Shown one piece after another: positions 11,391-54,967 of a stretch of DNA of 64,000 nucleotides. The notes beneath the pieces are model-generated. The model saw only the letters and a list, made by a program, of their open reading frames with translations. It was not told where the DNA came from and did no database searches. This stretch comes from an uncultured Methanosarcinales archaeon. GTDB taxonomy: Archaea; Nanobdellota; Nanobdellia; Woesearchaeales; ARS49. Numbering within the stretch: position 1 is the first letter of the stretch; each line of letters starts with the position of its first letter. The stretch spans positions 64,001 through 128,000 of the forward strand of contig CAZWVL010000001.1 of NCBI GenBank assembly GCA_964637115.1, read 5' to 3'. Both the position numbers and the translations under genes were made by a program.

Positions 11391-11549
11391 ATGGACCACA
11401 GAATAATCGGTTATGTCGCTTTAGGACTATTGGTAATCTACTTGGCACTCCGCTTTATGGAGCAGTACGCATTCAAAAAAATAGTCCGCGCAGAAGTTGA
11501 GCACGTGCTCAACAGCGACGAGCACAAAGTCAAGGGTCGGTATGGATGA
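11391..11549 (+). CDS. 52-aa single-TM microprotein between dnaK and dnaJ (not in the ORF track)
   Basis: [52 protein letters not shown]; ATG directly follows the dnaK TAA and its TGA overlaps the dnaJ ATG (ATGA). Confidence 0.75.
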
Positions 11550-13604: not shown

Positions 13605-14177
13605 TTAAGCACTCGCTAATTGCTCACGCAGTTTCTTGTACGCTCGACGTTCGATGGTCTTCACCGTGCCTTCTGGGAGTTTCAGCATTTTGCCAATGGT
13701 ACGCAAAGTCCGCGGCTCCTTTCCATACAAGCCGTGATGGAACGTGATGACAAACCGTTCATGCAATGGCAACACCTGCACTGATTTGTACAGTTGCGTG
13801 TTAAATGTGCGCTCTTCCTTTTTCACTATCTCATCCAGAGGTGTACTGTTGTATGCAGGATCCTGAGAGTCTGGATCAAATGGACGGAAATGCTGTGCGC
13901 GCCGCCTTTCCATTTTCGCAATATCCATAATTTTGTTGCTAATACACGTGCAGGCATATGTTGAAAAACTTGCTTTTTCCGGATCATGGCGCCTCGCCAC
14001 CTTCCATAACTTAATGGCAGCTTCCTGCGCCGCGTCCTCACGCAGATATGGTTTGCACCGTTTTTTCGCCATAGCATGCGTAAGATTAAGATTTTTAAGA
14101 ACTAATTCTTCATAAACAGCTTCATTGCCTTCCTTCACCTGAGCTGCCGCATCATATTTACCCGCGTCCCCACTCAT
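13605..14177 (-). CDS. Small sigma70-family protein (regions 2 and 4 only)
   Basis: Region 2: EDAAQEAAIKLWKVARRHDPEKASFSTYACTCISNKIMD; region 4: LPLHERFVITFHHGL...RTLRTIGKMLKLPEGTVKTIERRAYKKLR. Confidence 0.85.
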   Translation of the reverse strand: MSGDAGKYDAAAQVKEGNEAVYEELVLKNLNLTHAMAKKRCKPYLREDAAQEAAIKLWKVARRHDPEKASFSTYACTCISNKIMDIAKMERRRAQHFRPFDPDSQDPAYNSTPLDEIVKKEERTFNTQLYKSVQVLPLHERFVITFHHGLYGKEPRTLRTIGKMLKLPEGTVKTIERRAYKKLREQLASA

Positions 14178-15879: not shown

Positions 15880-18800
15880 TTGGAGGTCGGTTTGACGAAA
15901 CTTAACGTTCCATATATACCAAAAAAAGGGGGGCTTGGGGTCCTTGCGCTCTTTGGAATTCTATTTATTACACTGATTTTTGCGTTTTACTTCCGGCCAG
16001 CAGACGAAATTGTTGCAAAACCTACAATTGCTGAACAAACAATAAATGAAGCAGTAACGCAGCTGGCGGACAATGAAGTTGTAATACCAGTGCCAAAAGT
16101 TACAGGCGTTGTTTCACTTGATGACCCGAGACCCAAAATTGATCCACAACTGGTCAAGGAATTAAAAGAACTCAAACGACAGAAAAAACACAAAAGAGTC
16201 ACGGTTCTAGTTGAATTAAAAGATGAACGAGCGCTTGAGGCAATCAGGCAAGCAGGCGGAATAGTACAACAAAATTTTGATATTGGAAATATTGCAGTTG
16301 TAGAAGTGCAATCTGACAATGTAGAAAAAATTTCAGAAGCAACAGGAGTTGAACAAGTAGCATCTGAAAAAGAATACGTTGCATTGTTAGCAGACAGAAT
16401 CCCTGCGTTTTCTATCGATACTGCGGCCTGGGAGAATAATATAACTGGCAAAGGAGTCAAGATTGCGATATTAGATACGGGAGTTGGGCCACACAACAAG
16501 ATTACAGTTGCTGAAGGTGCATCTTTTGTTGACGGAGAAGATACAACAGACCAAAACGGACACGGCACGCACGTGGCAGGCATTGCTTATGGTGTTGCGA
16601 AAGATTCAGCAATTTACAATGCAAAAGTCTTGAACAAAGCAGGAGCAGGAACAACATCGCAAATAATTGCCGGAATTAATTGGGCAGTTGAAAACAATGT
16701 CGACATAATTTCAATGAGTTTCGGAGGAATGTTCACGGAGCTTGACGGGCCACTAGCGTCGGCTGTTAAGGAAGCAATTAACAATGGAGTTATTTTTGTT
16801 GTAGCATCTGGAAACTGCAAAACAGGCTGCGGCGGATTCTACGGAGTAACAACACCAGGAAATGTAAAAGAAGTCATAACCATAGGAGCGGTTGATAACA
16901 ATAATGTTGTTGCGAGCTTTAGTTCAGGAGATACGTTTGGCGAGTACATCAAGCCGGATGTTACTGCTCCCGGAATTGACATTACTTCTACATGGCTGAA
17001 CAACGGCGAGAAAACATCAAGCGGAACGTCAATGAGCACGCCGTTTGTTGCAGGTGTAGCTGCTTTACTGCTGGAGAAAGAACCTGGATTAACGAACGAG
17101 CAGGTGAAGCAGAAGCTGGAAGCGACGGCAACGGATGTAGGGGAAACAGGTAAAGATGTGCTGTATGGACGCGGAATAATCAGCGTCGCCAGCATTCTGT
17201 CCTCAAATTACAGCACCCCAGAAACTCCTCCTCAGATGGATGATACTGATCTTCCACCAAGTGACCTATCCAAATACACTTTGCATGAAATAACAGGAGG
17301 CGCATCACCAGAATACATAACGACTGATTGCCCGGAAAGCCTCGCATACTCCACAGAATTGAATCTATCACGTGAAGAATTTTACATGGCATACGAGTAT
17401 TGCATACTTCAGATCGAGAACAAGGTTCCTGAGTTACCTACTCCAGATCACTATCAAAATATCACAGATACGAGTGAGTATATCAGACAAGCTCCAAGAA
17501 TATATTTTGAAAACTGGCAATCGTACATTCCCGCCGGAGATGTTAACGAAACGCTCATACAAGAGTTAAAGCTAAAAGTCCGAGATCTTCAATCCTTTGA
17601 TTTCAAAACACTGGCAAACCCAGAACCTCTGTTTGATACCCAAAACCACATAGAAGTGGATTATGATGATAATTATAACGTGTTCCTGGGGAGTAATGAT
17701 GATGGAGTAGTGTGGGGAGGTTCAACGCTTTCGGGTCGCTTGCAGGAAGGAAGCAGCAGTCCAACTAATGCTCAAGTAATTTGTTACGATTGGTGTTCTG
17801 AATTTGATTCAGCATGGGATCATTGTTTCTCCACGAGCTCGACGGGCGCAAGCAGATCCGCTGATTTTTCAGCCTGCAGAGCAAGAAACTCAATCATCAA
17901 TTCAGTTTGCTCTGCAAACAATTGCGCGATGGGTCAAGCAGAAGGAGAGCACTCAATAGGCACAGGAAGTTCCGGCTCTCGTGAAAAATGCACAGTACGC
18001 TCATTTTATGTTACTGGTTGTTCCTCCGCATACACCTTAAGTGGCACTTTCAGTGCCACACATTACACGATTTCACCACGACAATTCTGGTGTGCGAATA
18101 GCGACACGGCATATGATGATGTGGGAAGATTTGGGAACAATCTTGAATGGATACTAATGCACACAATCTCCTGTGGAACAGGAAATAAGTGTGACGCAAC
18201 CATAGATGCTGACAATTCAGACTTTGGAACATCGGGAACAAGCGTGCCTAGCTCTCTTTGCAGGATAGACAATGGGCAATCCGGCTGTTCTCAGAACAGC
18301 CAATGCCTTGCAGGATCGCATTGTACGAGTAGCCATTGTTGCCTGAACGGACAAGAATGGGACGGTACGGGGTGCAGCATTCCAGGTACATGCACAGCTG
18401 GATTCAACGGCAATAAGCGATGCAGCGGCAATACACCACAATGGCAATATCAAAATTCTGACTGCTCGACAACCTGGCAAAACCAAGCGGCTTGCTCAAC
18501 AGGAACAACCTGCCAAAATGGAGATTGCGTGTCCACATGTAACAGTAATGGTCTCTGTGAATCTGGAGAAACCAAGCCTGGGTGTCCAAGTGATTGTAAC
18601 AAATCCATAGGTGCTATTTGCACTGCAAACAACCAGTGCAGTACGAACTTCTGCGATGGCAACACAGGCACGTGTCAAGCACCAACTACCTGCACTGATG
18701 GAGATCAAGATGGTTACGGAAATCCAGGAAGCGCAACGTGCTCAGCTGGGTCCACCTTGCTAGATTGCGATGACATTGATCCATTCATAAATCCTGGTGC

Positions 18801-21800
18801 AATAGAGCAATGTAACGGAAAAGATGACAATTGTAACGGTCAAACAGATGAAGGAGGAGTATGCACGCCACAACCGACATGCAATGACCAAGACCAAGAC
18901 GGATACGGAAGCCCGGCAACAGGATGCCCACAAACACTCCCAGATTGCGATGATTCAAAGTCAAATATACATCCAAACGCTCCGGAAATATGCGATGGAT
19001 TTGACAATGACTGCGACGGATCAATTGATGAAGCAAATGTTTGTTGCGGAAACCAACAATGCGACACTGGACTTGGAGAAAATCTGCAAAGCTGTGCGCA
19101 GGACTGCTATTCAAGCTACCAAATTACAGGAATACAATCACCAAGCAGTGTGAATCAAGGACAAACTGTGCAAGTAACAGCCAGCATCAAAAATACGGGC
19201 ACCTGGCCAGGAACAACAAATGTGGAAGGAGGAATAATACCCGACGGCTGGTTGCCATTTAGCAGTTCAAAATGCTGCGGCAACAACAACTTTTTCGGCA
19301 CGCAACAAACAACAATACAGCCAGGGCAAACAAACAACATACAGTTTACGTTAACAGCTCCCGGTGTAACAACAAAAGACAGTTGCGGAGGACAATCGGC
19401 GTGGGATACAAGCCACGAAATAACAATTGGACTCTACGATAATTGCGGAAACACTTACCAGCTAAAATCAAATCAAGATATAAAGATACAAGATAAGCCT
19501 TGCTCAAAGCCAAGCGATTGTGCTCTGCCTGCTGAAAAATGCGTCATCCTAAGCACAACCGGAACTTGCCAGGCAAATACTTGCACGAACCTATGCACAA
19601 GCGGGCAATATGCGTGTAGCGGAGAAACCGTTAGGCACTGTGAAGACACAAACAGTGACGGATGCTACGAATGGAAAGACACGACCGTATGCGCACCTGG
19701 ACAAACATGCGTACCAGGGCAGAGCTCATGTACGGCCGTTCAGATATCGACGGAACCATTTATTGAAGAATCAGCAGGTGGACAAGTCTACAAGCAAATT
19801 GGCGACACTGTTATACTAAACCTGAAATTTTTCCAACAAGAGCAAATCTCATTATATTACGATTCAAACCAATTTGAACTGGACGCGACAACCTGCCAGC
19901 AGACATTTACGATAGACAAAGACACGGCCTGCAAGTTTAAAGTAAAAATAGGACTGCAAGGAGCAGAACTTGGAGTGCGAAAGCAAAATACGATCAAACC
20001 TGCAAAGGCTACAGTTGTTACAATAAACAATCATAATGGAATAATAATAACTAATAAGAAAAAGCTAAAGGAAAGATTTGCAGGGCAGGAAATAAGCGTT
20101 CAAAATCTTCTAAATGACGCATATAACTTTGCTGATGACAACAATCTAATCATCTATGACTTGCAGGAACTGCCAGTCATACATCCATGGGCAAACTTCC
20201 CAACATACCAGGAAACAATAGCAAACCCATTCATGGTGGACAACACTTTAGCTGTAGAAATAGGAAAATTCATACGCAAGAAATGCATTCCTCCACAATG
20301 CCAGAGCACGCTAATACTTGGCGACGATTATGTCGTTCCACACTATAGGCGTTATACACAATTCTTGAATTCATATTTCTTCTCTCCAGCTATTAATACA
20401 CAGCTGCTCTACTCAGAGATACCGTATGTGGAAAGAACCACAAAAGAATTCTCACAACTGGATGAAGTGCTAAGCGATGACAATATTGCAAAGCAAGTGG
20501 TTATCATTAAGCCTGATTCTCTGTCAACAGAAATGCGAACTGCTGTTAACCGGCTAAAGGCAACTCTGCAAGCAAACTTTAGCTCAAGCATAACAGAAAA
20601 AGATTCAAGCAATGTGACTTGCAATGATCCTCAGCTCTTCAACAATCTAAATGGCGTGACGATAATAATACTCGGAACAGAACAAAACAACAGAGCTTAC
20701 AACTGCATGCCATTCGTCGCAGGATTAGAGAATAGGGACTCCGCATTCCTGGAAGTCAACCCGTGGGACGGAGGCGAGTATTCCATTGTCATCAACACAG
20801 AAAATCCCAAAATTATTGAAACCTTCAGCGATGTACTTCGCACAGGAGTATACAAAAAGATAATTGGCAGGCACTGGTATTTCATAGAGATGGCAGTGAC
20901 AGCGGCAAGTTTTGTCGCCATGGCCTGCGGTCCAATCCCCTGTGATTACGTTGTGGACTCTATTGATGCGGGAATACAATGCGGTGTTAAAGAAGATGCC
21001 CTAATGTGCGGTGTCAGCACTGGAGTCGCAATCTTGCCAATTATACCAAGTGGGCCGGTAAAATTGGTAATAAAGGCATTTATCCACTATGTTGGACCTG
21101 CTGGAGAAGCGTTTATACTGAAATATGGGCCTGGAGCTGTTACGTTCTTTGCAGGTATTGGAGGAAAATTCGATGATTTCAAAGCGTATCTTAAGAAAGC
21201 AGTAGATTACTTTGATGTTGAATGGAATGTAATTATCAAAAATTTCAACACACCGGCAGATGAAGAAGCTCTTGCGTTTGGCATAAAGAACATTGAGGCA
21301 GAGGGCAAAACTTTACAAGCATTTGAATCTGCCTTAAGCAAGCAGCAAAAAGCTCGCATCCTTCACTCAATTGGAAAATACTCCTCAGAATTCTTTGCGC
21401 AAAAAGGTTGGAAACAATTTGACAAGCTTGATAAGAGACTGTATAGAGTTGATTTACATACGCCTGATTTCATCAAAAATGCAGGCGGATGGACAAGAAC
21501 GGGCGGAGATGATTACGTCGGTTATGTAAAACAATTGAAAAATGGAAGATTCGTAGCGACAAGCAGATACGTTTCTGGAGCATTCCATGGAGCGAAAAGC
21601 GCTGGAAGCGTTGCTGACGGAGGAACGGCTTACGTATACATAATAGATCCGCGCACGCGTAATTATATCGATGCCCTTGAAACCGTGCCAAATCCTGGAT
21701 CCAATATGTTTATCGAAAGTGAAGTAACTGCTGTCGACAACATAGACTGGAATGATGTTGTAGGAACAGCGGTCTGGAAAGATGGTGATGATCTTCCACG

Positions 21801-21870
21801 GTCTGTATCACCAAATCCATCTTACAAAGGTAGCATGAGCCTGAATAACCTTGGCTGGGAGGTTGACTAA
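15880..21870 (+). CDS. Giant membrane-anchored multidomain toxin carrier: TM anchor, I9 propeptide, S8 subtilisin, Cys-rich/MopE-like repeats, CARDB/Ig, C25-like subdomain, pre-toxin hairpin, C-terminal R-S-E ADP-ribosyltransferase
   Basis: S8 triad IAILDTG (D, 16474), HGTHVAG (H, 16561), GTSMSTP (S, 17029); two DCDD...NPxAxExCxGxDDxCxG repeats; toxin tip LYR (21439-47)...FVATS (21556)...YVYII...ESEV (21715-23)...NPSY. Likely start is TTG 15892, 4 nt after GGAGGT (15882-15887). Confidence 0.85.
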   Translation: MEVGLTKLNVPYIPKKGGLGVLALFGILFITLIFAFYFRPADEIVAKPTIAEQTINEAVTQLADNEVVIPVPKVTGVVSLDDPRPKIDPQLVKELKELKRQKKHKRVTVLVELKDERALEAIRQAGGIVQQNFDIGNIAVVEVQSDNVEKISEATGVEQVASEKEYVALLADRIPAFSIDTAAWENNITGKGVKIAILDTGVGPHNKITVAEGASFVDGEDTTDQNGHGTHVAGIAYGVAKDSAIYNAKVLNKAGAGTTSQIIAGINWAVENNVDIISMSFGGMFTELDGPLASAVKEAINNGVIFVVASGNCKTGCGGFYGVTTPGNVKEVITIGAVDNNNVVASFSSGDTFGEYIKPDVTAPGIDITSTWLNNGEKTSSGTSMSTPFVAGVAALLLEKEPGLTNEQVKQKLEATATDVGETGKDVLYGRGIISVASILSSNYSTPETPPQMDDTDLPPSDLSKYTLHEITGGASPEYITTDCPESLAYSTELNLSREEFYMAYEYCILQIENKVPELPTPDHYQNITDTSEYIRQAPRIYFENWQSYIPAGDVNETLIQELKLKVRDLQSFDFKTLANPEPLFDTQNHIEVDYDDNYNVFLGSNDDGVVWGGSTLSGRLQEGSSSPTNAQVICYDWCSEFDSAWDHCFSTSSTGASRSADFSACRARNSIINSVCSANNCAMGQAEGEHSIGTGSSGSREKCTVRSFYVTGCSSAYTLSGTFSATHYTISPRQFWCANSDTAYDDVGRFGNNLEWILMHTISCGTGNKCDATIDADNSDFGTSGTSVPSSLCRIDNGQSGCSQNSQCLAGSHCTSSHCCLNGQEWDGTGCSIPGTCTAGFNGNKRCSGNTPQWQYQNSDCSTTWQNQAACSTGTTCQNGDCVSTCNSNGLCESGETKPGCPSDCNKSIGAICTANNQCSTNFCDGNTGTCQAPTTCTDGDQDGYGNPGSATCSAGSTLLDCDDIDPFINPGAIEQCNGKDDNCNGQTDEGGVCTPQPTCNDQDQDGYGSPATGCPQTLPDCDDSKSNIHPNAPEICDGFDNDCDGSIDEANVCCGNQQCDTGLGENLQSCAQDCYSSYQITGIQSPSSVNQGQTVQVTASIKNTGTWPGTTNVEGGIIPDGWLPFSSSKCCGNNNFFGTQQTTIQPGQTNNIQFTLTAPGVTTKDSCGGQSAWDTSHEITIGLYDNCGNTYQLKSNQDIKIQDKPCSKPSDCALPAEKCVILSTTGTCQANTCTNLCTSGQYACSGETVRHCEDTNSDGCYEWKDTTVCAPGQTCVPGQSSCTAVQISTEPFIEESAGGQVYKQIGDTVILNLKFFQQEQISLYYDSNQFELDATTCQQTFTIDKDTACKFKVKIGLQGAELGVRKQNTIKPAKATVVTINNHNGIIITNKKKLKERFAGQEISVQNLLNDAYNFADDNNLIIYDLQELPVIHPWANFPTYQETIANPFMVDNTLAVEIGKFIRKKCIPPQCQSTLILGDDYVVPHYRRYTQFLNSYFFSPAINTQLLYSEIPYVERTTKEFSQLDEVLSDDNIAKQVVIIKPDSLSTEMRTAVNRLKATLQANFSSSITEKDSSNVTCNDPQLFNNLNGVTIIILGTEQNNRAYNCMPFVAGLENRDSAFLEVNPWDGGEYSIVINTENPKIIETFSDVLRTGVYKKIIGRHWYFIEMAVTAASFVAMACGPIPCDYVVDSIDAGIQCGVKEDALMCGVSTGVAILPIIPSGPVKLVIKAFIHYVGPAGEAFILKYGPGAVTFFAGIGGKFDDFKAYLKKAVDYFDVEWNVIIKNFNTPADEEALAFGIKNIEAEGKTLQAFESALSKQQKARILHSIGKYSSEFFAQKGWKQFDKLDKRLYRVDLHTPDFIKNAGGWTRTGGDDYVGYVKQLKNGRFVATSRYVSGAFHGAKSAGSVADGGTAYVYIIDPRTRNYIDALETVPNPGSNMFIESEVTAVDNIDWNDVVGTAVWKDGDDLPRSVSPNPSYKGSMSLNNLGWEVD

Positions 21871-37740: not shown

Positions 37741-37797
37741 CATTGTTAAGTGGTAACATCAGCAAGCTTTAAAAGGGCGACTTATTCTTTAGAATTT

Positions 37798-39966
37798 ATG
37801 GGCGGCGATGAAATCATAGTCAAAACCTTGGAAGAACTTCTTCTTCAGCTCACTCCGGAAGAAAGAGCAAAGGCCCTGCCAGAACTCAGGAAACTTGTTG
37901 ACAGAAGCATTGCGAAAGGAGAAACAGTGGTGCTTAAGGGCATAAGAACTGTTGATGTAAACTCAGAAAAAGAGAACCCTGCTGCCACCAATTATTACGT
38001 CATCAAGAGGGAAATAGGTAGAGGCGGAATGGGAATAGTTTACAAGGCTTATGATGCTGAACTCGAGCGCGAAGTTGCACTAAAAATTTTGAGAGGCAAA
38101 GACGAAGAAAGCATTAAACGTTTTGAAAAGGAGCGCAAGATAACTGCGCAACTCGACCACCCAAACTTTGCGCGCGTTCTAACGATCGGCGAAATGGACA
38201 CGCCTGATGGAAAAATGCCTTTCTACACAATGCCTTATATCGTAGGAGACAATCTTGCAGACTTCATCAAGTGGCGCGGAGCGCCTGGAGATAAAGGACA
38301 AAAATTGCGCAGCGAGTTCACGTTAGTTCGTTTGCTGGGAATGCAACAGCTGATTTGTCAGGCGATACAAAGCGCCCACGGCAAAGGCATAATGCACAGG
38401 GACCTAAAGCCAGCAAACATACTTGTTGGCCCATACGGCGAAGTTTATGTAGTTGATTTTGGCCTGACAAAAAGAATCAAGGAAGTCGAGAATGATTCAC
38501 GGTCCTTGGAAGCAAAGGTTGGAAGGGAACTTAAAGACGAACAGGACCTCACAGGTGACGCTGGAATGGGAACCCAGAATTACATGTCTCCGGAGCAGAT
38601 TCTGGAACCAAGAAAAGTAGACCATCGCGCAGACATTTTCGGACTTGGAGGAATACTATATTACATCTTGGCCGGAGAAATACCAAAATACATCGAGCCA
38701 AGCAAAAAAGAGGTTGAGGAATCTGGAGCAACTGGAGGATTTCTTTTGGCTCTATCTTCCTACAGAATCAGATTTACACTGGATAAATGCAAAATAATCC
38801 CTCCGAGTCAGGTTGTTGCAGAAAGACGCGAGAAACTGAAGGTAATCCAAGAAAGCGGTATTGGCGTCATAATGCCAGAACCGGTAGATCCGGCGCTTGA
38901 AGCAATTTGCATGAAAGCACTGAGAAAAAATCCAGAAGAAAGATACCAATCCTGCAGGGAGATGTGGGAGGCGCTGCAACAATTCATCGAAGGCAAACCA
39001 GAAATGATTCTTGAGAACGAAGCCAAAGAACTGACAAAGGTCATGTCCAAGCAAAACCTGGACAAAACACTTGAGAATCTGGAAATGGCAGAAGTAAAAG
39101 TCCAAGAAGCAATCAACAAGCTGGAAAGAATAAAACGTATGGCGCTGGAAGAAAAGCTGAAAATGATAGATCTGCAGATCCTAAAAGCACGAGTTTACGA
39201 CCAGCGCGGACTAAGCGGCCTGATTGTCGAAACCATAGAAAAAGCAAAAACCCTGATAGAAGCGCCACTTAACATTACACAACGGCAATACATACGATTG
39301 CTGATCATGGAAGGGCTCGCAAAATTCAACCAGAAAACCTATGATGAAGCAAAGGAAATACAATTGAAAGCCATAGAGTTGTGCAAATCGCACCCGGAGA
39401 AAAAACTTTTGGTATCAGCGTACCACAATTACGCCATGGCGTGCCTGTATGATTTCAGCAGGAGACAGGATATGGCTGATTTCAACAATGCAAAGCATGC
39501 ATTTGGTGAGTGTTACAAACTCGCAGACCAGCTTACAGATGTTTTTAATGCAGTACACGCACGAACTATGCTGGCCAATTTGCTTCTTGAAAAAAATGAA
39601 TATCGGGAAGAAGTAAAGTCAACCTTGGAAACAGCCTTAAAGATTGCTGCGGGCGATAATTCGCTTACCGCAGAAGTTCATACGTTGCTGAGCTGGTATT
39701 ATTTCAAACAAAACAGCTATCACGAAACGATAACACATGGCGAATTGGCAGTTTCCCTTGCTGATAAGACAGACAACCAGATAAACCTGAACGAATCACG
39801 GCTCGCACTCGGGCAGGCATACCATCACCTTGGCAATGCTGAGAAGCGCATCCAAAACTTGAAGCCGGTGCTATCCTTCAAGTATGCCCGCGAGCCCTTG
39901 TCGTACGAAGATGCCATAAAGGAATTCTACGCGAAGAACAATTTGGATATAACGGAGCTTGATTAG
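37798..39966 (+). CDS. Hanks-type Ser/Thr protein kinase with C-terminal TPR repeats
   Basis: IGRGGMGIVY, VALK, HRDLKPANI, DFG, GTQNYMSPEQ, DIFGLG, ERY; TPR-like helices after residue about 420. ATG 37798 preferred over GTG 37750 because tttaaaag lies about 25 nt upstream. Confidence 0.9.
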   Translation: MGGDEIIVKTLEELLLQLTPEERAKALPELRKLVDRSIAKGETVVLKGIRTVDVNSEKENPAATNYYVIKREIGRGGMGIVYKAYDAELEREVALKILRGKDEESIKRFEKERKITAQLDHPNFARVLTIGEMDTPDGKMPFYTMPYIVGDNLADFIKWRGAPGDKGQKLRSEFTLVRLLGMQQLICQAIQSAHGKGIMHRDLKPANILVGPYGEVYVVDFGLTKRIKEVENDSRSLEAKVGRELKDEQDLTGDAGMGTQNYMSPEQILEPRKVDHRADIFGLGGILYYILAGEIPKYIEPSKKEVEESGATGGFLLALSSYRIRFTLDKCKIIPPSQVVAERREKLKVIQESGIGVIMPEPVDPALEAICMKALRKNPEERYQSCREMWEALQQFIEGKPEMILENEAKELTKVMSKQNLDKTLENLEMAEVKVQEAINKLERIKRMALEEKLKMIDLQILKARVYDQRGLSGLIVETIEKAKTLIEAPLNITQRQYIRLLIMEGLAKFNQKTYDEAKEIQLKAIELCKSHPEKKLLVSAYHNYAMACLYDFSRRQDMADFNNAKHAFGECYKLADQLTDVFNAVHARTMLANLLLEKNEYREEVKSTLETALKIAAGDNSLTAEVHTLLSWYYFKQNSYHETITHGELAVSLADKTDNQINLNESRLALGQAYHHLGNAEKRIQNLKPVLSFKYAREPLSYEDAIKEFYAKNNLDITELD

Positions 39967-46509: not shown

Positions 46510-46595
46510 CATCTTATTCTTCACTACTCTACAATACATATTTGTCACAAAGTTTAAAAGATGAACTCATAAAGTGATATAGAAATCGTGGTGGG

Positions 46596-47306
46596 ATGAT
46601 GCGGGAAACTAATGATTCGTTATCTGGATTGATAAACGATTTATTAGGTATAGAATTAAACATTACAGGAGCTAAACTGGCAGCAAGAGCTTCAACTTTG
46701 AAACGCAGAGTTCTAGACGACCAAGATGTTTTTGGTCCTTTCTTAAAAAAAGCAGGAACCGGAAGAGCCACAAGATATGAAATTGTTGATGTTCCCAATT
46801 TCAAAGAAAAACTGAAGAAAGTTCTGGAGGAAGAGAATGAAGATCCTGAGGCAGGAAAATACTCTTTCAGAGAGCTCGTAGGAGAGGCTGTAGTTCAAGT
46901 GGCTGGAGAACTCACAAAACCAGAACTTAACAGTTTGATAACAATGTACATGTCAATGTACAAAACAGACTCACAAGTTGCGGAATGTATGACAAAAGGC
47001 CGAGTAGATTTCAGATATACAGTTCATCATCCTAAACAACTCAAAGAAAGATTAGTGGAGCTCATAAACCAGCACAGACATGGAGATATACACCCACAGT
47101 TGGAAAAAACAAAAGCAGAAGTATACACGATTAATGAGATAAGAAAAACAGCGGGATTAACCTTTGAACGAATGGCCGCATACATGGCAGAACCAAAATA
47201 TGCAAAACTGCTAGGCGATGTTTCTAAAAACAAAGCAGGAGAAATAGGCTATCCCAAGAGAAATGCGGATGACTTCATAAAGGCGGTGCAAAGAAATGAC
47301 GCATAA
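46596..47306 (+). CDS. Hypothetical protein with three putative MerR/Xis-like winged-helix repeats
   Basis: Three segments of the form (Y)S/T-x-x-E-L/I...wing...R/G-Y...x-L/F-K; overlaps the sigma-like gene by 11 nt. Confidence 0.55.
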   Translation: MMRETNDSLSGLINDLLGIELNITGAKLAARASTLKRRVLDDQDVFGPFLKKAGTGRATRYEIVDVPNFKEKLKKVLEEENEDPEAGKYSFRELVGEAVVQVAGELTKPELNSLITMYMSMYKTDSQVAECMTKGRVDFRYTVHHPKQLKERLVELINQHRHGDIHPQLEKTKAEVYTINEIRKTAGLTFERMAAYMAEPKYAKLLGDVSKNKAGEIGYPKRNADDFIKAVQRNDA

Positions 47307-49629
47307 AGGAGAGGAAGTGGGCCTTTCAGCATACAGAAAAGACTACGTCCACCCGATGGAAGCGCCAGAAGTCTTCAGAAGCGTAAGAGCGCTGGACATT
47401 TATGAGGGATTCTCAAGGCATCCAAACCTGCGCAAGACAATCCGCGTTGAAGGAGTAATCCGCGAGGATATGGTGCAAGTGGATGATATAGGATTATTTC
47501 AAAGAGTAAGTTTTGACAAGCTTGCACAAGCATTTGGGCTGAAGGATTTACATTGCCTTCGGCAATTTTTCTTTGAAACCTGGGGAGAAAAAGTAGGCGC
47601 GGCATCAAACGTGCTTGTGGCGGACTTCCTAGCGTACGTCACGCGCGCGCAGAGCAGGCTGTTCCGCGTGTTCCCTGAAAATAATGGACAAATCACGACA
47701 TACCCATTTATGGAAATGCACAATGTCGCACTGCCAGAATATTACAGGGAAAGAGGAAAAATTCCTGTAAGCGTGTTAAAAGACTACCTTGCGGCTGTGC
47801 TTGATGATTTGAAAGAAACAGGAGCGCTACCCAGAAAAAAACTAAGCGGAGTAGTAAACGCGCACTATCAAAACATTGCATTTGTTGAAGGACACGTACA
47901 AGCAGGAGATGAGTTCATTCCAACAAGGCAAGCATTCAGAGCGCTCAGCCCATATTTTACTGGAAAAGAAATCAAACATTACTTGGGCAATGGAAAGATA
48001 ACATCTGAAAAAAGGGGAGTGACAAAATTATTCAAAGTAGCGGATCTGCAGAGCCTAATAAAAGAACACTTAACTACGGGAGACGACATTTCACGACGTG
48101 CACTTGAAAGAGAACTTGCACGGGACGTAACTTTACCGGTATTAAAAGTAGGAATAAAAAACAGCGCGATTCACTATGCCACACTTTTGTTGCAGCCAGG
48201 ACTAAGAAATGCAGACTACGGAAAAATTCAGAGTGTTGTAGAAAAGCTGAACAAACTCGGTATCATGGTTCTAGAACCTGATGCAGAAAAGGTATTCAAA
48301 AATTTCACTTACAACTACAAATTAGACAGTCCGCCGGACGCTTCACAAAACCCGCTCCAGTATTACTTGTGGGATATAGGAAAAATAGAGATTCTTGATA
48401 AAGACTCGCAAAAAGACATTGGAAAAATAATGATACAACAGAGAGAAAAATTCACGTACAAATTACTGCGCAACCCTCACGCGGCAAGAAAAATTGCTGC
48501 AACACTTGCAGATATAATAGAAAAAGGACACGGATTGAAGTCCGCAAGCATATTCACAGGAGAAGACAGCCTGAATAAAGCACTAAAATGGCACGAAGTC
48601 GTTGAAGAACTGGAAAAACTGGAAAGCAAGGCAACAAGACTTGAAAAAGAACTTTCATCCGTACAGGAACGAGGCAAACTTGTAAAAGAGTACCGTTCGC
48701 TTCAAGACAAAATTGAGAACAGAATACGCGGATACGGCCTGCAAACAAGATGGCTGGCAAAAGTTGCAGAAAAATACATAACAGAAGAAATGCCTGTTGA
48801 AGAATTTGACAATAAAACAGAAATTCTAACCAGCCACCAATTATACAAAGATACGAGAGACTGTTTAATCAAGCAGATACTAAAACTGGTAGTGTCGTGC
48901 GCAAAACGCTATGTTTCCAAAAGCCCGTATGGAAGCTTTGCAGACAGAATGCTCAACCTAATCTCGCTCGGCAACATTGGAGCAATAAGTGCAGTTGAAA
49001 GATGGAATCCGGACTTAAGCTCAATCACCACATACGGATACTGGTGGATGAGACAGAGCATTACCAGACACATGTATGAAACAAGAGGAATGCAAGCCGG
49101 CGATTCACACGCAATGAGAGAAGCGGTACGTGTATATGCGAAAGAAAGACGGCGATTCTTCCAAACACACTTCCGAGAGCCAGGCCTGGATGAACTTTCA
49201 AAAAGACTAAACGTGTCAATAGAAAGATTAGCAGAAATAAGACTGTGGTCAAAACGCACCGTATCGCTTGACCAAGCAATAAATGATGATGAAGAATCAC
49301 GAATGGGCGACTTAATAGGCAAAAAAGACCCAGATCTTGAAAAGCCAAAGTACGACGAAGTTGCATTGCAAATGTTGATTCAAAAAATAGTTACGCCCAA
49401 GCAATGGAAAGTTCTGTACGGAAGATTCTATGAGGACAAAACGCTTGAGGAAGTCGCACAAAGAACTGATTTGAGAAAAAACAAGATCGGCGCCACCGGG
49501 CCCATGACACGAGAACGCATACGCCAAATTGAAGCAAAAGCACTTGCCAAACTCCGAGATCCTATCCATCTCAAAAAAATTGAAGGACTAACTGGGGAAG
49601 TTCCTGGCGTTGAAATCCCGCTTGATTAG
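47296..49629 (+). CDS. Large group 1/2 sigma70-like protein with novel N-terminal extension including an Xis/HTH_17-like domain
   Basis: Region 1.2 NPLQYYLWDIG (48349), 2.1 LIKQILKLVVSCAKRY, 2.2 NLISLGNIG, 2.3/2.4 TTYGYWWMRQSITR, 3 REPGLDELSKRL...SLDQAI, 4.2 TLEEVA...TRERIRQIEAKALAKLR. Confidence 0.88.
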   Translation: MTHKGEEVGLSAYRKDYVHPMEAPEVFRSVRALDIYEGFSRHPNLRKTIRVEGVIREDMVQVDDIGLFQRVSFDKLAQAFGLKDLHCLRQFFFETWGEKVGAASNVLVADFLAYVTRAQSRLFRVFPENNGQITTYPFMEMHNVALPEYYRERGKIPVSVLKDYLAAVLDDLKETGALPRKKLSGVVNAHYQNIAFVEGHVQAGDEFIPTRQAFRALSPYFTGKEIKHYLGNGKITSEKRGVTKLFKVADLQSLIKEHLTTGDDISRRALERELARDVTLPVLKVGIKNSAIHYATLLLQPGLRNADYGKIQSVVEKLNKLGIMVLEPDAEKVFKNFTYNYKLDSPPDASQNPLQYYLWDIGKIEILDKDSQKDIGKIMIQQREKFTYKLLRNPHAARKIAATLADIIEKGHGLKSASIFTGEDSLNKALKWHEVVEELEKLESKATRLEKELSSVQERGKLVKEYRSLQDKIENRIRGYGLQTRWLAKVAEKYITEEMPVEEFDNKTEILTSHQLYKDTRDCLIKQILKLVVSCAKRYVSKSPYGSFADRMLNLISLGNIGAISAVERWNPDLSSITTYGYWWMRQSITRHMYETRGMQAGDSHAMREAVRVYAKERRRFFQTHFREPGLDELSKRLNVSIERLAEIRLWSKRTVSLDQAINDDEESRMGDLIGKKDPDLEKPKYDEVALQMLIQKIVTPKQWKVLYGRFYEDKTLEEVAQRTDLRKNKIGATGPMTRERIRQIEAKALAKLRDPIHLKKIEGLTGEVPGVEIPLD

Positions 49630-49724: not shown

Positions 49725-50546
49725 ATGAGTGAAACACTATTCGATTTATTGGTTGTAGAGACAGAAATTTCAGGTCCAACAAACTCGGTTCTAGAGAAAG
49801 CTCTGGCCAACATTGAAAAACAAAGAGAAACACAAATCTTCGACAAATTCGGGCGCGACATCAAATCAGCTTCAATTGATTACACGGTCATAATACAGCC
49901 AAAAGCAGAAGGCAAGAAACCAGAAGCAATCACTTCTACAAGCACAAAATCATACGAAGATGCAGTTGCAAAAGCAAGCAAGGATGGCAAGGTAGAATAC
50001 GAAGAAACAGTAACACTAAAACTGGTCGAAAAGTTCAAAGTTCCATACATTCTTGAAAAAGCAAGGGCATCAGCGCCAAGCAAAAGAAGACTGCTTTCGG
50101 CACTCGAACGCGAAGAAAGAACACTGCGCGAACGCTACGGAAACGACATGACAAAAGAGCCAAACGATGTTCACTATTCTGTAGCATTCCATACAGGTGT
50201 GTGGAATGAAGACAAAGGAAGGCCAAACGGTGCTGTTGCAGGAGTAGGAATCAGCAGAACATCACTGGTTGAAGCGATGGATAAAGCTGCAGAGGACACA
50301 GGCAAAGCAAAGCACAGGGGAGAATTATACGCAGGAACACACACGTTCAAAATTTACATGACTGCCCAGGTTAAGGACTTGGTAGAAGCAGAAGCAAGGG
50401 CAAGAGAAGAAGCAAAAGAAGCTAAAGCTTCAAGCGGAGCGCTTGTCGGTGCTGGAGCATCAAGTCGTTCATCGGGTCGTACTTACGGAGGCGGCGGCAC
50501 AATGTCATATGCTGCAAGCGCTCCTACAAAAACAGACCTATTCTAA
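49725..50546 (+). CDS. Hypothetical protein with an apparent internal duplication
   Basis: DYTVII...KSYEDAVAKASKD vs HYSVAF...TSLVEAMDKAAED; Gly/Ser-rich tail; SD-like aagggag upstream. Confidence 0.65.
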   Translation: MSETLFDLLVVETEISGPTNSVLEKALANIEKQRETQIFDKFGRDIKSASIDYTVIIQPKAEGKKPEAITSTSTKSYEDAVAKASKDGKVEYEETVTLKLVEKFKVPYILEKARASAPSKRRLLSALEREERTLRERYGNDMTKEPNDVHYSVAFHTGVWNEDKGRPNGAVAGVGISRTSLVEAMDKAAEDTGKAKHRGELYAGTHTFKIYMTAQVKDLVEAEARAREEAKEAKASSGALVGAGASSRSSGRTYGGGGTMSYAASAPTKTDLF

Positions 50547-52231
50547 ATTTTAGATTTTCTTAACTTATCAAGAACTCTATCGCGATAGCCGTCTAAGCGC
50601 AGCTGGTTGTAACAATTAGAGGCCATGCCAAGCAATTCTGTGAAAATTCGCGCATAACTGGCAGACATCCAAGCATCAAACTTCTCTCCAAGTTTTCCAC
50701 GCGCATAAGCTTCAAAAGCCTCCATGGAAGAAGTATGAGGAGCGAGAACTTCTTTAGCAAAACAAACCCTATCTGCTGCTTCATAACAAAAGTTTGCCTT
50801 CTTTTCCAAAAGATACAACGCTTTCTCATCACCGTTGCGCAAAGCCCTGAAACGCTGCATGTGCTCATCATCAATCTGTTCGGGAGCCAGCACTCCTAAA
50901 GTGCCTGAACCAAAGCTCATTCCCCCGATGTGAAAATTACCGCTAATGCGCTGATCTATCATTCTTTGCAATCTTTTCATCCGTTTTTCTACATTTCTTT
51001 GCGCGTCAAGTCTTGAAAGTTCGTCTCCGCCATCCTCATTTCTCAAATCAAACTCCACAGAGTGCTCTGACATGGAAAAAAGAAGATCCTTTCTCGCTTC
51101 TTTGCGAGCATTCTGGTAGAGTGCCTCAGCCATAGAAAACTTTCTGACAGAATCATTATTCTTAACTTTGCTGTGAGAATAAATGACGGCTTCCAAGAAC
51201 TCAGGTCTTAGCTGGCTATAATCTCCTTCCAAGTATGAATTCTGAATCTTGTCCTCTAATTTGCATTGCTCTTCAACGGTCAGGCCAAGAAAATCTTCAC
51301 GAAGGGAGCTTATGGTTGCCATCGGCAAGACCATGACTGGAATATTGTCAAGAAATTCTGCCCAGCCGGACTCCCTGAAGAAATAACCAGTGACCTCTTC
51401 CCGTATAATTTTATTGCCGTCAAAAAATATCTTGTTCTCTAAACCGCGCTTTTGCACCAGAAGGCGGTCAAGCGTTACTCCGCTTACAAGCGCCTGCTCT
51501 TTAGGATAATATCTTACAAACCATTCTGCAGGCAAGGGAGTTCTGGTTTTCCAAAAATCAACAGTAGAATAGCCGGCGCGCTGGCCTTTCACGAGCATCT
51601 TGGCAGCACCTTCGTCTGAACGCAAGTATTTGATGCGCTCAAGATATTCTGCTTCAGTAAAAGTGTCAACATAAGTGAATTCAAACTCATCAACCTGGCC
51701 GTGCTCCTCATTCTTAATGGAGAATGTTTTATCATCGTAATTCCAAGTAACTGCGCCAAGAGGCAGCATTTCCTGGCACAAAACCCATAAATTCTCCTCG
51801 CCAACATCAACTTCAACGATTGCGTGAGCAGAAACAAAAGAACTGCCAGCGCGCCTGCAGCCCTCGATTTCTCTGATTACTGGACGCAAGCCGCATTCCT
51901 TTGCAACCACATAATTAGCGACCATCTGCGTGGAGCATATCGCCTCAGACATTTCATGCGGAAGCTGAAAATAAGTACCTTTGCGCAAGGCATCCCCAAA
52001 GCCATACTTGTGGCCGAGGTGTTTTTTAATAACTTGTGCGATAAGCTTCTTGTCATTCAAGATATCTGGACGTTTAGGATGAGAAGGATTGTCAAGAATT
52101 TTTTCAAGATCACGAATCTGGCTTTTAGCGCCTTTTTCTTCCAGCTGTTTAATCTTCATCACGTAAGCAGCGTCGATAATCAACGCACGCTTTTTCACAG
52201 CCCACTCTAAAGTTTCAGGAGGAAAACTCAT
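50543..52231 (-). CDS. Hypothetical protein with a transglutaminase-like (papain-fold) N-terminal domain
   Basis: ICSTQMVANYVVAKECGL...SAHAIVEVDVG...LWVL resembles the C...H-x-W/I-x-E-V...W pattern. Confidence 0.5.
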   Translation of the reverse strand: MSFPPETLEWAVKKRALIIDAAYVMKIKQLEEKGAKSQIRDLEKILDNPSHPKRPDILNDKKLIAQVIKKHLGHKYGFGDALRKGTYFQLPHEMSEAICSTQMVANYVVAKECGLRPVIREIEGCRRAGSSFVSAHAIVEVDVGEENLWVLCQEMLPLGAVTWNYDDKTFSIKNEEHGQVDEFEFTYVDTFTEAEYLERIKYLRSDEGAAKMLVKGQRAGYSTVDFWKTRTPLPAEWFVRYYPKEQALVSGVTLDRLLVQKRGLENKIFFDGNKIIREEVTGYFFRESGWAEFLDNIPVMVLPMATISSLREDFLGLTVEEQCKLEDKIQNSYLEGDYSQLRPEFLEAVIYSHSKVKNNDSVRKFSMAEALYQNARKEARKDLLFSMSEHSVEFDLRNEDGGDELSRLDAQRNVEKRMKRLQRMIDQRISGNFHIGGMSFGSGTLGVLAPEQIDDEHMQRFRALRNGDEKALYLLEKKANFCYEAADRVCFAKEVLAPHTSSMEAFEAYARGKLGEKFDAWMSASYARIFTELLGMASNCYNQLRLDGYRDRVLDKLRKSKI

Positions 52232-52236
52232 TTTGG

Positions 52237-53757
52237 CTAAAATACTTTGCCCATATCAGTGCCTGCCACTTTCTTTTGCGTTTCAGCGCTTGGAGGCCTT
52301 TCAATTTTCTGATATGTAGGTATAGGAGTTACAGTGACAAGCTGCATGCCAAAGCGCTCTTTCTCAGTATTAAGTGCATAGACAAGAGCGCGCTCGTGAA
52401 TGTGCACTCCGCTTTCAGTCCTTATCTGATTCCTCAAATCATTAACGCTAAATGAACCATAACCGAATGTCGGCAAGGCTTTCTGGATTGCCACTCTATA
52501 CTCATCTGTGACAGTTATTTCTGCAAACTCATAAACCCACTTCAAACCGTCTTTTCTCTTTTGCCTGATGCCAAAATCTTCCATGGAAAGAGACATGTTC
52601 CTGCCAACGCTGATAAAATCCAGTGAAATTCCAAGCTCTTTAACACTTTCACCTACGCGTTCAGAAGTGAATTCGTCATAGCCAATGTCCGCTCTAACTA
52701 TTTCCAAAGCCCTTTTAATGTAAAACTTATTAACAGAGGCTCGTTCGATTGGACGCAGGCACGAAATAATTTTCTTGATGAACTCGTCTTCTGGGATCGG
52801 CCGTTGGCCTGTTTTGGAAAACTTGTGTCGTTCTTCTTTGCTGATGCCGAACAAAGCAGGCTCAGAACGAAGGTAACTTCCAATCAAGCCGGCGGTTAAA
52901 ATACAGCCTGCTGGCAAGTCTTTCTTGACACGTCCTGAAAGAAACCGCTGGCCGGTAGCGTAACTGTCAATAACTCTCTTCATTTCCAAAAGTGCGAGCA
53001 ATTCAGGCGGTCTTTCTGTAGGGCCACTGCCAAGAATACCGCTTCTGGCGGGAATTATTTCGGACGTTGGACTGGACTGTGCATACCTTGGAAGCGAGAC
53101 TGCCACTGGATGGACCCTGAAAAGTTCAATTGGAATGCTAAGGTACTCATTTTTCTGCAATTTGTCAAGAATTTCATCAGCGCACGGGATAACGTAATGA
53201 ATCCTGTCAAGGGCAGATAGTTCTGAAATGAAATTAAGCTCTTTAACAGCGCCTTCGAAAGTAGACAATGAGAGCTTCATCTTTGTTGCGTTCTCACGGT
53301 GATTTTCCAAAGGCAGGATTTTGTCCTGCAGGTCTGCAAGCTCAACCAGTTTATCAGAAGTCGGAGCAGCGCCGGGCTTCCTTAAAGCGGTCCATTCTGC
53401 ATCAACTTTTCTTTTAATTTCCTCAAGTTCACCTATTGTCTTTTCACCGGCACTTAGTTCTGAAGCTATTTTTCTCTGCCTTTGGCCTATGGCACCGATT
53501 ACACGGCCAAGATAAGCGCCCTGAACCTCGTTCCATCTGGTAATGATTGGCATTCTGGCTTCGTGGTCGCAGATTGTTGCAAGGCTAGCAGTCCTGTAGT
53601 ACTTGTCACGAGTCTTTTTGTAAAGAACAGGATCAGTATTTTCCAAATCGCGGTTTGAATTCTGGCGCAACTCTTCCCACGATTCCTCAACCCATTTTGA
53701 GAGCTTGCTCTTTGCTTCTGGACTGAGACCTTGAGCAGTTTGATTATCTTCTGGCAT
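52237..53757 (-). CDS. Hypothetical coiled-coil protein (506 aa)
   Basis: Long ORF, N-terminal coiled coil, possible C-terminal wHTH; co-oriented 5 nt from the next gene. Confidence 0.7.
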   Translation of the reverse strand: MPEDNQTAQGLSPEAKSKLSKWVEESWEELRQNSNRDLENTDPVLYKKTRDKYYRTASLATICDHEARMPIITRWNEVQGAYLGRVIGAIGQRQRKIASELSAGEKTIGELEEIKRKVDAEWTALRKPGAAPTSDKLVELADLQDKILPLENHRENATKMKLSLSTFEGAVKELNFISELSALDRIHYVIPCADEILDKLQKNEYLSIPIELFRVHPVAVSLPRYAQSSPTSEIIPARSGILGSGPTERPPELLALLEMKRVIDSYATGQRFLSGRVKKDLPAGCILTAGLIGSYLRSEPALFGISKEERHKFSKTGQRPIPEDEFIKKIISCLRPIERASVNKFYIKRALEIVRADIGYDEFTSERVGESVKELGISLDFISVGRNMSLSMEDFGIRQKRKDGLKWVYEFAEITVTDEYRVAIQKALPTFGYGSFSVNDLRNQIRTESGVHIHERALVYALNTEKERFGMQLVTVTPIPTYQKIERPPSAETQKKVAGTDMGKVF

Positions 53758-53845
53758 AATTCCCCCAATATTTCATCACTCAACAATAGTCATTTAAGTG
53801 TCATTTATAAGCTTTTCTGTCTAAATGTATGCCGTAATAGACGAG

Positions 53846-54967
53846 CTAATCCTTATGTTCACGATGCTGTACGCCAAGCGCATCTATGTAGAATTCTCTT
53901 CGCTGATTTTCCATTGATGAATAATCAGCAGGTTTTTTCTTTTCCCAGGTCTGCAAGTCGTTAAGAACTATGTTACAAACGTGCTTGAGAGAATCAAGAG
54001 ACTCCTTGCCCTGGTAGACAAATGTGCCCTTTCCACGCATTACAAGGACTGCGAAAGATTGATCGTGCCAGCGGTAGAATAATGCTGCCTTGTTATTTTC
54101 AAGGCTTTTTCTGTCAACGTGAATGTGCTGGAGAAGCTGCGCCAGAACTCTGAGCGATTCCTTTCTTTCAAGAGCTATTTTTAATCCTTTTTTGATTTCC
54201 CGTTCTCCCTTGTAGCCGAGCTCTTTGAGCATGGAGATTGCTTTTCCATAATTTTTTTCTTCCAAGTGTTGTGTTGCAGTGTCAAGGTCCTGATCGAATG
54301 CACTTTCTAAGTTGTCGAGCTGCACTTCATATGGCGCTTTGAGCTCTCGACGCTTTAGTGCAAGCACATCTGCATAGTTGGCCGCATCTCCTAATTTATC
54401 CTTCACAGCATCCAATGCCTGCTGTTCAGTCTCCCTTATTTTGTGCCGAATATCATCTGTTCTGCGCCTGACGTAAGCATCCCTTATTCCGTTCTCTTCA
54501 ATGAAATCACGTAAATTTTGTACAGCATCAATAATGCCGTCTTTCGTAAGACGCGGCTCGCGGATTCCTGCCACTTTATCATAAACTACAGGATCATCAA
54601 AGCCCCTGTCGCTCAAATCATCTGCAACGCGCGTTAATCCATGCTCATAAGCAAGCTCTTCAAATCCTATTCCGAACAAATCACGCTGCAATTGTTCGCT
54701 CAGCTTGCTTGGATCTTTTGGAGGATCTATTCTTGTCATTACGGCAGTTTCCAGGACGCCTATATCCTTTCCCCTGAAGTCAAGAAGCCGGTCGTATTTT
54801 CCCGGCTCGCCCTTGAGAACGTCAAGAATTTCCCTGAATGTTTGAACAGAGTCATAGCCGCATTGGAATAATAATTCGGCGTAATGCCCTCTGCGCGAAA
54901 GCCTGTGCACCTCTCTTTTGCGCGGGCTTCTCAACAAATCTAACAATACCTCTAGCGGCTCCCACAT
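53846..54967 (-). CDS. Hypothetical helical protein (373 aa)
   Basis: Long charged helical ORF; no motif recognised. Confidence 0.7.
   Translation of the reverse strand: MWEPLEVLLDLLRSPRKREVHRLSRRGHYAELLFQCGYDSVQTFREILDVLKGEPGKYDRLLDFRGKDIGVLETAVMTRIDPPKDPSKLSEQLQRDLFGIGFEELAYEHGLTRVADDLSDRGFDDPVVYDKVAGIREPRLTKDGIIDAVQNLRDFIEENGIRDAYVRRRTDDIRHKIRETEQQALDAVKDKLGDAANYADVLALKRRELKAPYEVQLDNLESAFDQDLDTATQHLEEKNYGKAISMLKELGYKGEREIKKGLKIALERKESLRVLAQLLQHIHVDRKSLENNKAALFYRWHDQSFAVLVMRGKGTFVYQGKESLDSLKHVCNIVLNDLQTWEKKKPADYSSMENQRREFYIDALGVQHREHKD

Follow-up and report, generated by a model that had tools for sequence, protein, structure and literature searches.

Sigma-70-class genes have been described in DPANN genomes, where they are "particularly prevalent in Woesearchaeota" (Castelle et al. 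2021, Front Microbiol, PMC8204110). Section 7 of that paper ruled out mis-binning, detected no anti-sigma factors and offered no clear mechanism. Thus, a sigma-70 factor in an archaeon, the headline of a preliminary description of the present locus, is already in print. Here we describe a gene encoding a 777-aa member of this class, in a 64,000-nt stretch of Woesearchaeales DNA (hereafter the window: positions 64001–128000 of contig CAZWVL010000001.1, or C1). Like the published DPANN family (fam00359, PMC8204110), it carries bacterial-type regions 2–4 in a Woesearchaeota genome that has both TBP and TFB, is not the product of mis-binning and comes without a recognisable anti-sigma factor. The gene therefore encodes a sigma-70-class protein on a truly archaeal DPANN contig. 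What is new is the long-form variant itself, defined by an N-terminal domain, a partner gene and a pattern of erosion. The sigma passage on fam00359 (PMC8204110) mentions no N-terminal domain of about 350 aa, no winged helix and no upstream partner, nor does that passage speak of erosion in regions 2.1, 2.2 and 3.0 or of a rare subfamily.

The gene and its parts lie as follows in the window.

47296–49629, + strand: long-form sigma-70-family gene (P0001, 777 aa), an uninterrupted open reading frame
47296–48345, + strand: N-terminal extension (residues 1–350), which defines the family and is its most constrained part
47908–48087, + strand: excisionase/MerR-type winged helix-turn-helix (residues 205–264), by fold match
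48358–48495, + strand: region 1.2-like helices (residues 355–400), with NCBIfam alignments beginning at residues 350–355 (TIGR02997)
48865–49074, + strand: sigma region 2 (residues 524–593), by Pfam and alignments
49120–49326, + strand: sigma region 3 (residues 609–677), by Pfam and alignments
49393–49557, + strand: sigma region 4 (residues 700–754), by Pfam, alignments and model

The reading frame and every coordinate given in the preliminary description were correct. That description had also seen all sigma regions from 1.2 to 4.2. Pfam places regions 2, 3 and 4 of the protein in the sigma-70 family, each above its gathering score (Sigma70_r2, residues 524–593, 30.4 bits against a cut-off of 24; Sigma70_r3, residues 609–677, 41.4 against 25.3; Sigma70_r4, residues 700–754, 47.2 against 24.1). 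Region 1.2 can be traced by alignment from about residue 355, with no Pfam r1_2 match on the protein, though a relative in genome G279 is matched. The model has helices there (353–362 and 369–391), and R383, F386, P394 and A397 are invariant across the long-form family. The best NCBIfam matches are RpoD/SigA models, none of them above 132 bits where the cut-offs run to several hundred (NF004208, 131.8 bits, below an equivalog cut-off of 555; TIGR02393, 119 bits, below 354). Because these scores fall so far under the equivalog cut-offs, the protein is a divergent group-1-like sigma and no RpoD orthologue. Matches to the Pfam families CLZ and MTD were under their own cut-offs and were disregarded.

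How does the protein compare with the bacterial group-1 factors RpoD and SigA? We placed its motifs by residue-level alignment to solved chains (e.g., 5tw1_F and 4jk1_X) and to relatives, alongside an AlphaFold model of the full protein (mean pLDDT 76). The domain order is shared: region 1.2 (putative here), a non-conserved region (long and helical here, residues ~425–479), then regions 2, 3 and 4. The region 2.3/2.4 motif is intact (TTYGYWWMRQSITR at 49027–49068, with TTYGYWWMRQ at residues 578–587), and its aromatic and polar residues include the equivalents of E. coli Y430, W433, W434, Q437, T440 and R441, which melt and read the -10 element. The recognition helix of region 4.2, TRERIRQIE (residues 738–746, 49507–49533), is identical to that of bacterial sigmas and keeps the equivalents of R584, E585, R586, R588 and Q589. 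In contrast, the core-binding motif of region 2.2, DLIQEGN in bacteria, is degenerate and reads NLISLGN (NLISLG at residues 554–559, 48955–48972, as noted earlier; NLISLGNIG for bacterial DLIQEGNIG), with replacement of the equivalents of D403, Q406 and E407. The region 3.0 motif RTIRIPVH, normally found just before region 3, is lost, and the acidic region 3.2 linker is kept in part. Regions 2.1 and 4.2 also carry inserts that RpoD and SigA lack. The region 2.1 insert (5–6 aa, residues ~543–548) and the loss of region 3.0 had been missed by the preliminary description. The 11-aa insert reported in the region 4 turn does exist, at residues 725–735 (49468–49500) between helices 717–723 and 739–753, as a low-confidence loop in the model. 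It is a species-level feature, confined to this protein and an 82%-identical relative (P0002) and missing from the other six family members. The host differs as well, since this genome has no bacterial core enzyme.

Retention of DNA-reading residues combined with erosion of the core-contact surfaces, first proposed for this one protein, holds across the aligned sequences of the whole long-form family. In the eight long-form sequences, the -10 contact residues T579, Y580, W584, Q587 and R591 and the -35 helix residues T738, R739, E740, R741, R743 and Q744 are all invariant. Region 2.2 follows the loose pattern [D/N/W]xx[S/G]x[A/G][N/S] and occurs as NLISLG, NLISIG, DAVSEA, DAYGAA, DLISHA, WAISDA or DRMSAA. 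The particular substitutions singled out before are thus not conserved: D403 has become N only in the 777-aa protein and its close relative, and the position of E407 varies (L/I/E/A/H/D/A). To quantify the pattern, we calculated retention as the share of bacterially invariant positions kept in each region, using approximate region limits that we take to follow the E. coli map. The short-form Woesearchaeal set includes genomes G010 and G023, both unpublished.

Region 2.1: long form 0.47, short-form Woesearchaeal 0.81
Region 2.2: long form 0.45, short-form Woesearchaeal 0.66
Region 3.0: long form 0.27, short-form Woesearchaeal 0.51
Region 3.2: long form 0.39, short-form Woesearchaeal 0.63
Region 4.2: long form ~0.65–0.71, short-form Woesearchaeal ~0.66–0.71

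The G279 relative retains 0.69–1.0 of these positions in regions 2.1, 2.2, 3.0 and 3.2.

Compared with P0002, the sigma gene as a whole has a dN/dS of 0.12 (0.05 for residues 1–200 and 0.09–0.23 for the sigma regions), and housekeeping neighbours range from 0.06 to 0.24. Purifying selection of this strength means that the gene is not decaying, which answers an objection named earlier, relaxed selection consistent with decay.

The N-terminal extension sets the long form apart. An exhaustive search of 1.84 billion proteins with residues 1–350 returned seven cluster representatives including that of the query, six of them 742–784 aa long, and within the order the domain occurs in three of 401 genomes (this one, G017 and, weakly, G279). 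The long form is thus a rare subfamily of the sigma-70 genes known in DPANN archaea. The N-terminal half folds confidently (model pLDDT 81). Its residues 205–264 align with the excisionase of GIsul2 (8c3t_A; Z 6.8, root-mean-square deviation 2.3 Å, 55 of 57 residues aligned with VIA-align) and with Pukovnik Xis (4j2n_A, Z 6.5), followed in the list by many MerR DNA-binding domains. These Z values are middling and speak at the level of fold only; the model predicts a beta-alpha-alpha-beta-beta winged helix across the whole domain. The Xis/HTH_17-like unit recognised earlier therefore stands as a fold, with no match to HTH_17 or any other Pfam family in these residues at E ≤0.1. Unlike excisionases and MerR proteins, the unit is one internal part of a larger, otherwise unmatched domain. 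Residues 1–200 gave no convincing fold match, Foldseek with the N-terminal domain found nothing in the PDB at E ≤0.001, and searches of the ESM Atlas with that domain, by shape and by features, yielded weak HTH_17-type leads only, under trust levels. Residues 272–330 were considered as a counterpart of B. subtilis sigma region 1.1 and rejected as more than a lead (Z 5.1, tied with unrelated rows).

A sigma-like match was found in 15 of 41 sampled relatives, a count that includes G010 and G023. Short-form Woesearchaeales sigmas (400–540 aa) come from the same lineage; they differ in lacking the N-terminal domain and in retaining far more of regions 2.1 and 2.2, and this genome has none. In a quick tree that also takes in G010 and G023, the long forms are monophyletic (SH-aLRT 99) on a long stem, and most short-form Woesearchaeal sigmas are probably their sister group (support 88, subject to long-branch effects). 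Two further sigma genes from Woesearchaeal bins (G038:C67, locus L016, and G022:C25, locus L025) fall among bacterial sequences in this tree. The protein from G038 looks bacterial throughout (DLIQEGNLG, RTIRIPVH) and comes from a bin with ~6% contamination; it may represent contamination or a recent transfer of its own.

The G279 protein joins such an extension to a canonical sigma. Its N-terminal domain is weakly homologous to that of the long form (E 1e-4), its sigma part is fully canonical (FLDLIQEGN, RTVRIPIH; Pfam r1_2, r2, r3 and r4 all strong), and upstream of it lies a large gene with partner-like motifs (E 0.011). The gene is on a 249-kb contig of a near-complete archaeal genome in four contigs. 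This suggests that the core-contact surfaces drifted at a time when the N-terminal extension and the partner were already in place.

The partner gene and the region before it complete the locus.

46596–47306, + strand: partner gene (P0121, 236 aa), whose stop codon overlaps the sigma start by 11 nt
46510–46595, + strand: conserved upstream region with a BRE/TATA-like box (TFB-recognition element and TATA box) and a GGTGG ribosome-binding-like site

At all seven clear loci, a homologous gene lies upstream of the sigma gene on the same strand and overlaps its start by 4–14 nt. The partners range from 235 to 1293 aa and share a C-terminal module of ~100–130 aa (pairwise E down to 1e-18), which is conserved in P0121. 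Ahead of it stand one to several copies of a unit of ~70 aa, whose copy number sets the length of the protein. The unit bears a wing-like motif, G-x-R-x-RYE-I/V, and forms expandable repeats (L072:1130-5011, + strand; L070:3401-5008, + strand). The repeat region of the 1293-aa partner gave weak, sub-threshold Pfam hints of winged-helix families such as FtsK_gamma and WH_RGF3, and the single N-terminal unit of P0121 is probably a winged helix. P0121 has no Pfam or PADLOC match, and a match of any kind to a known anti-sigma domain is likewise absent from the partner in both collections. The gene has a dN/dS of 0.19. A word-index search with the partner finds the close orthologue only, and the more distant partners were located by synteny. 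In the short flanks (~1–1.5 kb) of the short-form sigmas, a partner-like open reading frame was not detected. Co-translation at seven of seven loci would fit a protein that is bound by its partner.

The genes that flank the partner-sigma pair are different at each locus. In genome G005, a NUDIX gene is followed directly by an AIRC-like gene, and in L026, the locus of the 82%-identical relative, partner and sigma stand in that order between NUDIX and AIRC. Partner and sigma thus behave as a two-gene cassette that is inserted or deleted within the genus. No convincing repeats flank the cassette as insertion scars, and the intergenic region of the empty site in G005 shows a loose alignment with each junction of the filled one, which allows no firm interpretation. 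After the sigma gene, the window holds four orphan genes (273, 562, 506 and 373 aa; 49725–54967) with no Pfam or PADLOC family, and L026 has the purE-like AIRC gene and further purine-synthesis genes directly in this place. The orphan block is thus absent from L026 and may be a second insertion. The 273-aa frame was considered as a partner paralogue on account of a 33-nt repeat and was dropped because the comparison was not significant (E 0.24).

Upstream of the cassette, a BRE/TATA-like box (AAAGTTTAAAAG) stands ~40 nt before the partner start codon, and similar boxes occur ~30–50 nt before that codon in six of seven cassette lineages; by its sequence the region looks like an archaeal-type promoter. 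A 68-nt core is ~98% identical between this genome and L026, where synonymous sites in the flanking genes differ by ~50%. Inspection by eye of the element at 46510–46595 picked out an imperfect inverted pair, CTTTCTTACA and TGTCACAAAG, ~40 nt apart. The element may be an operator.

Does the gene belong to the archaeon? The genome amounts to 1.27 Mb in 27 contigs (98% complete, 4.25% contamination) and encodes TBP and TFB. Its only largest subunit of RNA polymerase (RNAP) is of the archaeal Rpo1N type and adjoins an archaeal Rpo2 C-terminus, and no bacterial alpha-CTD was found in the genome; it thus has one archaeal RNAP and no bacterial core. We tested whether C1 is part of this genome because all three of its sigma-family genes lie on that contig: the 777-aa gene and two 190-aa genes resembling extracytoplasmic function (ECF) sigmas. 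C1 correlates with the genome in tetranucleotide composition (r = 0.99), and its single tRNA (Leu-CAG) is one that the genome's tRNA set otherwise lacks. An 11.6-kb query around the sigma gene is matched in 13 of 14 same-genus genomes at 64–80% nucleotide identity. The substantial matches all lie in a housekeeping block directly upstream (a 110-aa open reading frame, 3-dehydroquinate (DHQ) synthase, superoxide dismutase, NTPase, LEA_2 and NUDIX), whose orthologues were confirmed by protein comparison at six loci (protein identities up to 84–89%). Other family members reside on contigs of 216 kb and 249 kb, the former with genes for an ATP-dependent DNA ligase and a PolX-like protein. The archaeal setting assumed by the preliminary description is borne out by TBP, TFB, the RNAP and the upstream orthologues. 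The sigma gene belongs to the chromosome of a Woesearchaeota archaeon, is functional and descends from a bacterial group-1-type sigma factor. At the contig end (C1:160001-191339), the tetranucleotide correlation with the genome falls to 0.75–0.82.

What, then, does the protein do? Somewhat short of an even chance, we favour a partner-assisted, sequence-specific regulator that binds or opens DNA and has been freed of the classical core-binding constraint. Such a protein would no longer be a classical sigma and would regulate transcription in the archaeal cytoplasm. Its sigma-2 and sigma-4 modules would read -10-like and -35-like DNA, and its winged helix, together with the winged-helix-like repeats of the partner, would add DNA contacts. 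Regions 2.1, 2.2, 3.0 and 3.2, which clamp the bacterial core, would have been released from their bacterial constraint, and the protein may also open DNA jointly with its co-translated partner. Several points weigh against this proposal. Free group-1 sigmas bind promoter DNA poorly in bacteria when the core is missing. Selection on the full sigma layout, including the acidic 3.2 linker, is easier to reconcile with continued use of an RNAP scaffold. The seven cassettes share no operator upstream beyond the TATA-like boxes. Pairs of sigma-70-type -35 and -10 elements are not in excess either (17 observed against 17.4 ± 3.8 after shuffling, in 600 upstream regions with ≤2 mismatches, a weak test for a small regulon). 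Finally, a complex model favours docking of region 2, in the canonical way, on the coiled-coil of the archaeal clamp.

That model bears directly on the possibility that the protein still docks on the archaeon's own RNAP, with region 2 on the Rpo1N clamp coiled-coil, the homologue of the beta-prime clamp helices in bacteria, and with initiation directed or modulated at a few promoters; the 2.1/2.2 surface would then have been re-tuned rather than eroded. We modelled sigma residues 350–605 with residues 50–420 of Rpo1N from the same genome, both as alignments (G010 was left out for Rpo1N), and obtained a score of 0.69 against 0.00 for the best of three controls. Of 80 solved complexes, 58 attain this mark, as do 2 of 110 mismatched pairs, a calibration that is rough here as our own alignments were used. 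Runs shared at least 90% of contacts with a partner pLDDT of at least 85, and the interface is canonical, with sigma 546–565 (region 2.2) and 522–529 (region 2.1) on the coiled-coil and N554 near R253/R257 of the Rpo1N fragment. The model indicates compatible geometry and likeness rather than binding, and its pass may reflect memory because complexes of sigma with the beta-prime clamp helices have been solved many times. Docking is also favoured by the purifying selection on the entire sigma layout and by the short-form Woesearchaeal sigmas, which keep D..QEG-type 2.2 motifs in genomes none of which has a known bacterial core. On the other side, most of the bacterially invariant positions in regions 2.1, 2.2 and 3.0 are no longer kept by the long-form clade; the Rpo1N coiled-coil does not vary among 16 relatives, some with and some without the long-form sigma, and therefore gives no sign of co-adaptation; no excess of sigma-70-type promoters was seen; and archaeal TFB, TFE and Spt4/5 use the equivalent sites on RNAP. 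Taken together, we regard docking as possible but on the unlikely side. A version in which the bacterial-type sigma and its dedicated partner dock together on the clamp coiled-coil and help to select or open specific promoters beside TBP and TFB appears doubtful to us. The RNAP independence put forward in the preliminary description is thus a plausible proposal rather than a demonstrated one, given that the complex model passes its controls for archaeal clamp docking, subject to the memory effect.

The cassette could instead be part of a mobile element, a virus or a defence system and regulate the genes of that element rather than those of the host. Its patchiness (three of 401 genomes of the order), its indel behaviour and changing neighbourhoods, the excisionase-like fold and the 5.3 kb of orphan genes after it in this genome would all agree with this, as would the likeness to MzaA of the MZA anti-phage system, which is likewise a long member of the sigma-70 family, extended at its N-terminus. 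The profile matches to MzaA are weak (104 bits against a cut-off of 800; 56.8 bits with PADLOC) and cover the sigma part only, leaving the N-terminal extension unmatched, and neither MzaB–E nor any other PADLOC defence component was found among the neighbours. No integrase, tRNA or convincing flanking repeat was found, composition matches the genome and the flanks are housekeeping genes, all of which makes this origin improbable. Still less can be said for the idea, raised earlier, that the protein is an effector sent into a bacterial host or neighbour to redirect its RNAP: DPANN archaea are thought to be symbionts (PMC8204110), and the -10/-35 reading residues of bacterial primary sigmas are kept, but signal peptides and membrane segments are absent from both the sigma and the partner, secretion genes are not adjacent, promoter and genomic context are archaeal and housekeeping in type, and the very surface by which a bacterial core would be bound is eroded. 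We consider it very improbable, with nothing found in its favour beyond these two general points. That the gene is an artefact or relic, on a mis-binned or chimeric bacterial contig or as a decaying capture, could be argued from the placement of all three sigma-family genes on one contig and the 4.25% estimated contamination. It is largely refuted and scarcely credible: composition, the tRNA and the upstream orthologues tie C1 to the genome and thereby exclude mis-binning, a concern voiced at the outset; family members sit on the 216-kb and 249-kb contigs with archaeal features; and the frame is intact under purifying selection.

The role of sigma factors in cells that depend on TBP and TFB has been a question since the DPANN report in 2021. 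This locus narrows it to a small, testable system, consisting of a protein derived from sigma, its single obligatory partner and a conserved element upstream of both, and it brings an internal contrast between frozen DNA-reading residues and drifting core-contact surfaces, with G279 providing the same extension on a canonical sigma. Binding to the archaeal clamp would show that the interface between sigma and the clamp helices can cross the domains of life; absence of such binding would make the protein a clear example of a sigma that has become an ordinary DNA-binding regulator. Docking of sigma and partner on the archaeal RNAP, if true, would amount to a hybrid bacterial/archaeal initiation mechanism beside TBP and TFB.

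The two smaller sigma-family genes on C1 are as follows.

Window 13605–14177, - strand: ECF-like sigma-family gene, 190 aa, regions 2 and 4 only, by Pfam
C1:20250-20822 of this genome (L011:1201-1773:-), - strand: ECF-like sigma-family gene, 190 aa, regions 2 and 4 only, by Pfam

Their Pfam scores are 44–45 bits for r2 and 37–39 bits for r4 or r4_2, and the gene in the window has a PP2C phosphatase gene on one side and a gene for a membrane protein on the other. Elsewhere in the window, a 1996-aa protein with a subtilase domain (15880–21870, + strand) has a weak, sub-cut-off C-terminal match to heat-labile enterotoxin A, an ADP-ribosyltransferase (E 9e-4). Bacterial-type DnaK/DnaJ genes followed by a PP2C phosphatase gene lie at 9576–13414, and a Hanks-type Ser/Thr kinase with tetratricopeptide (TPR) repeats further on at 37750–39966; with these, the archaeon has chaperone and signalling genes of bacterial style as well.

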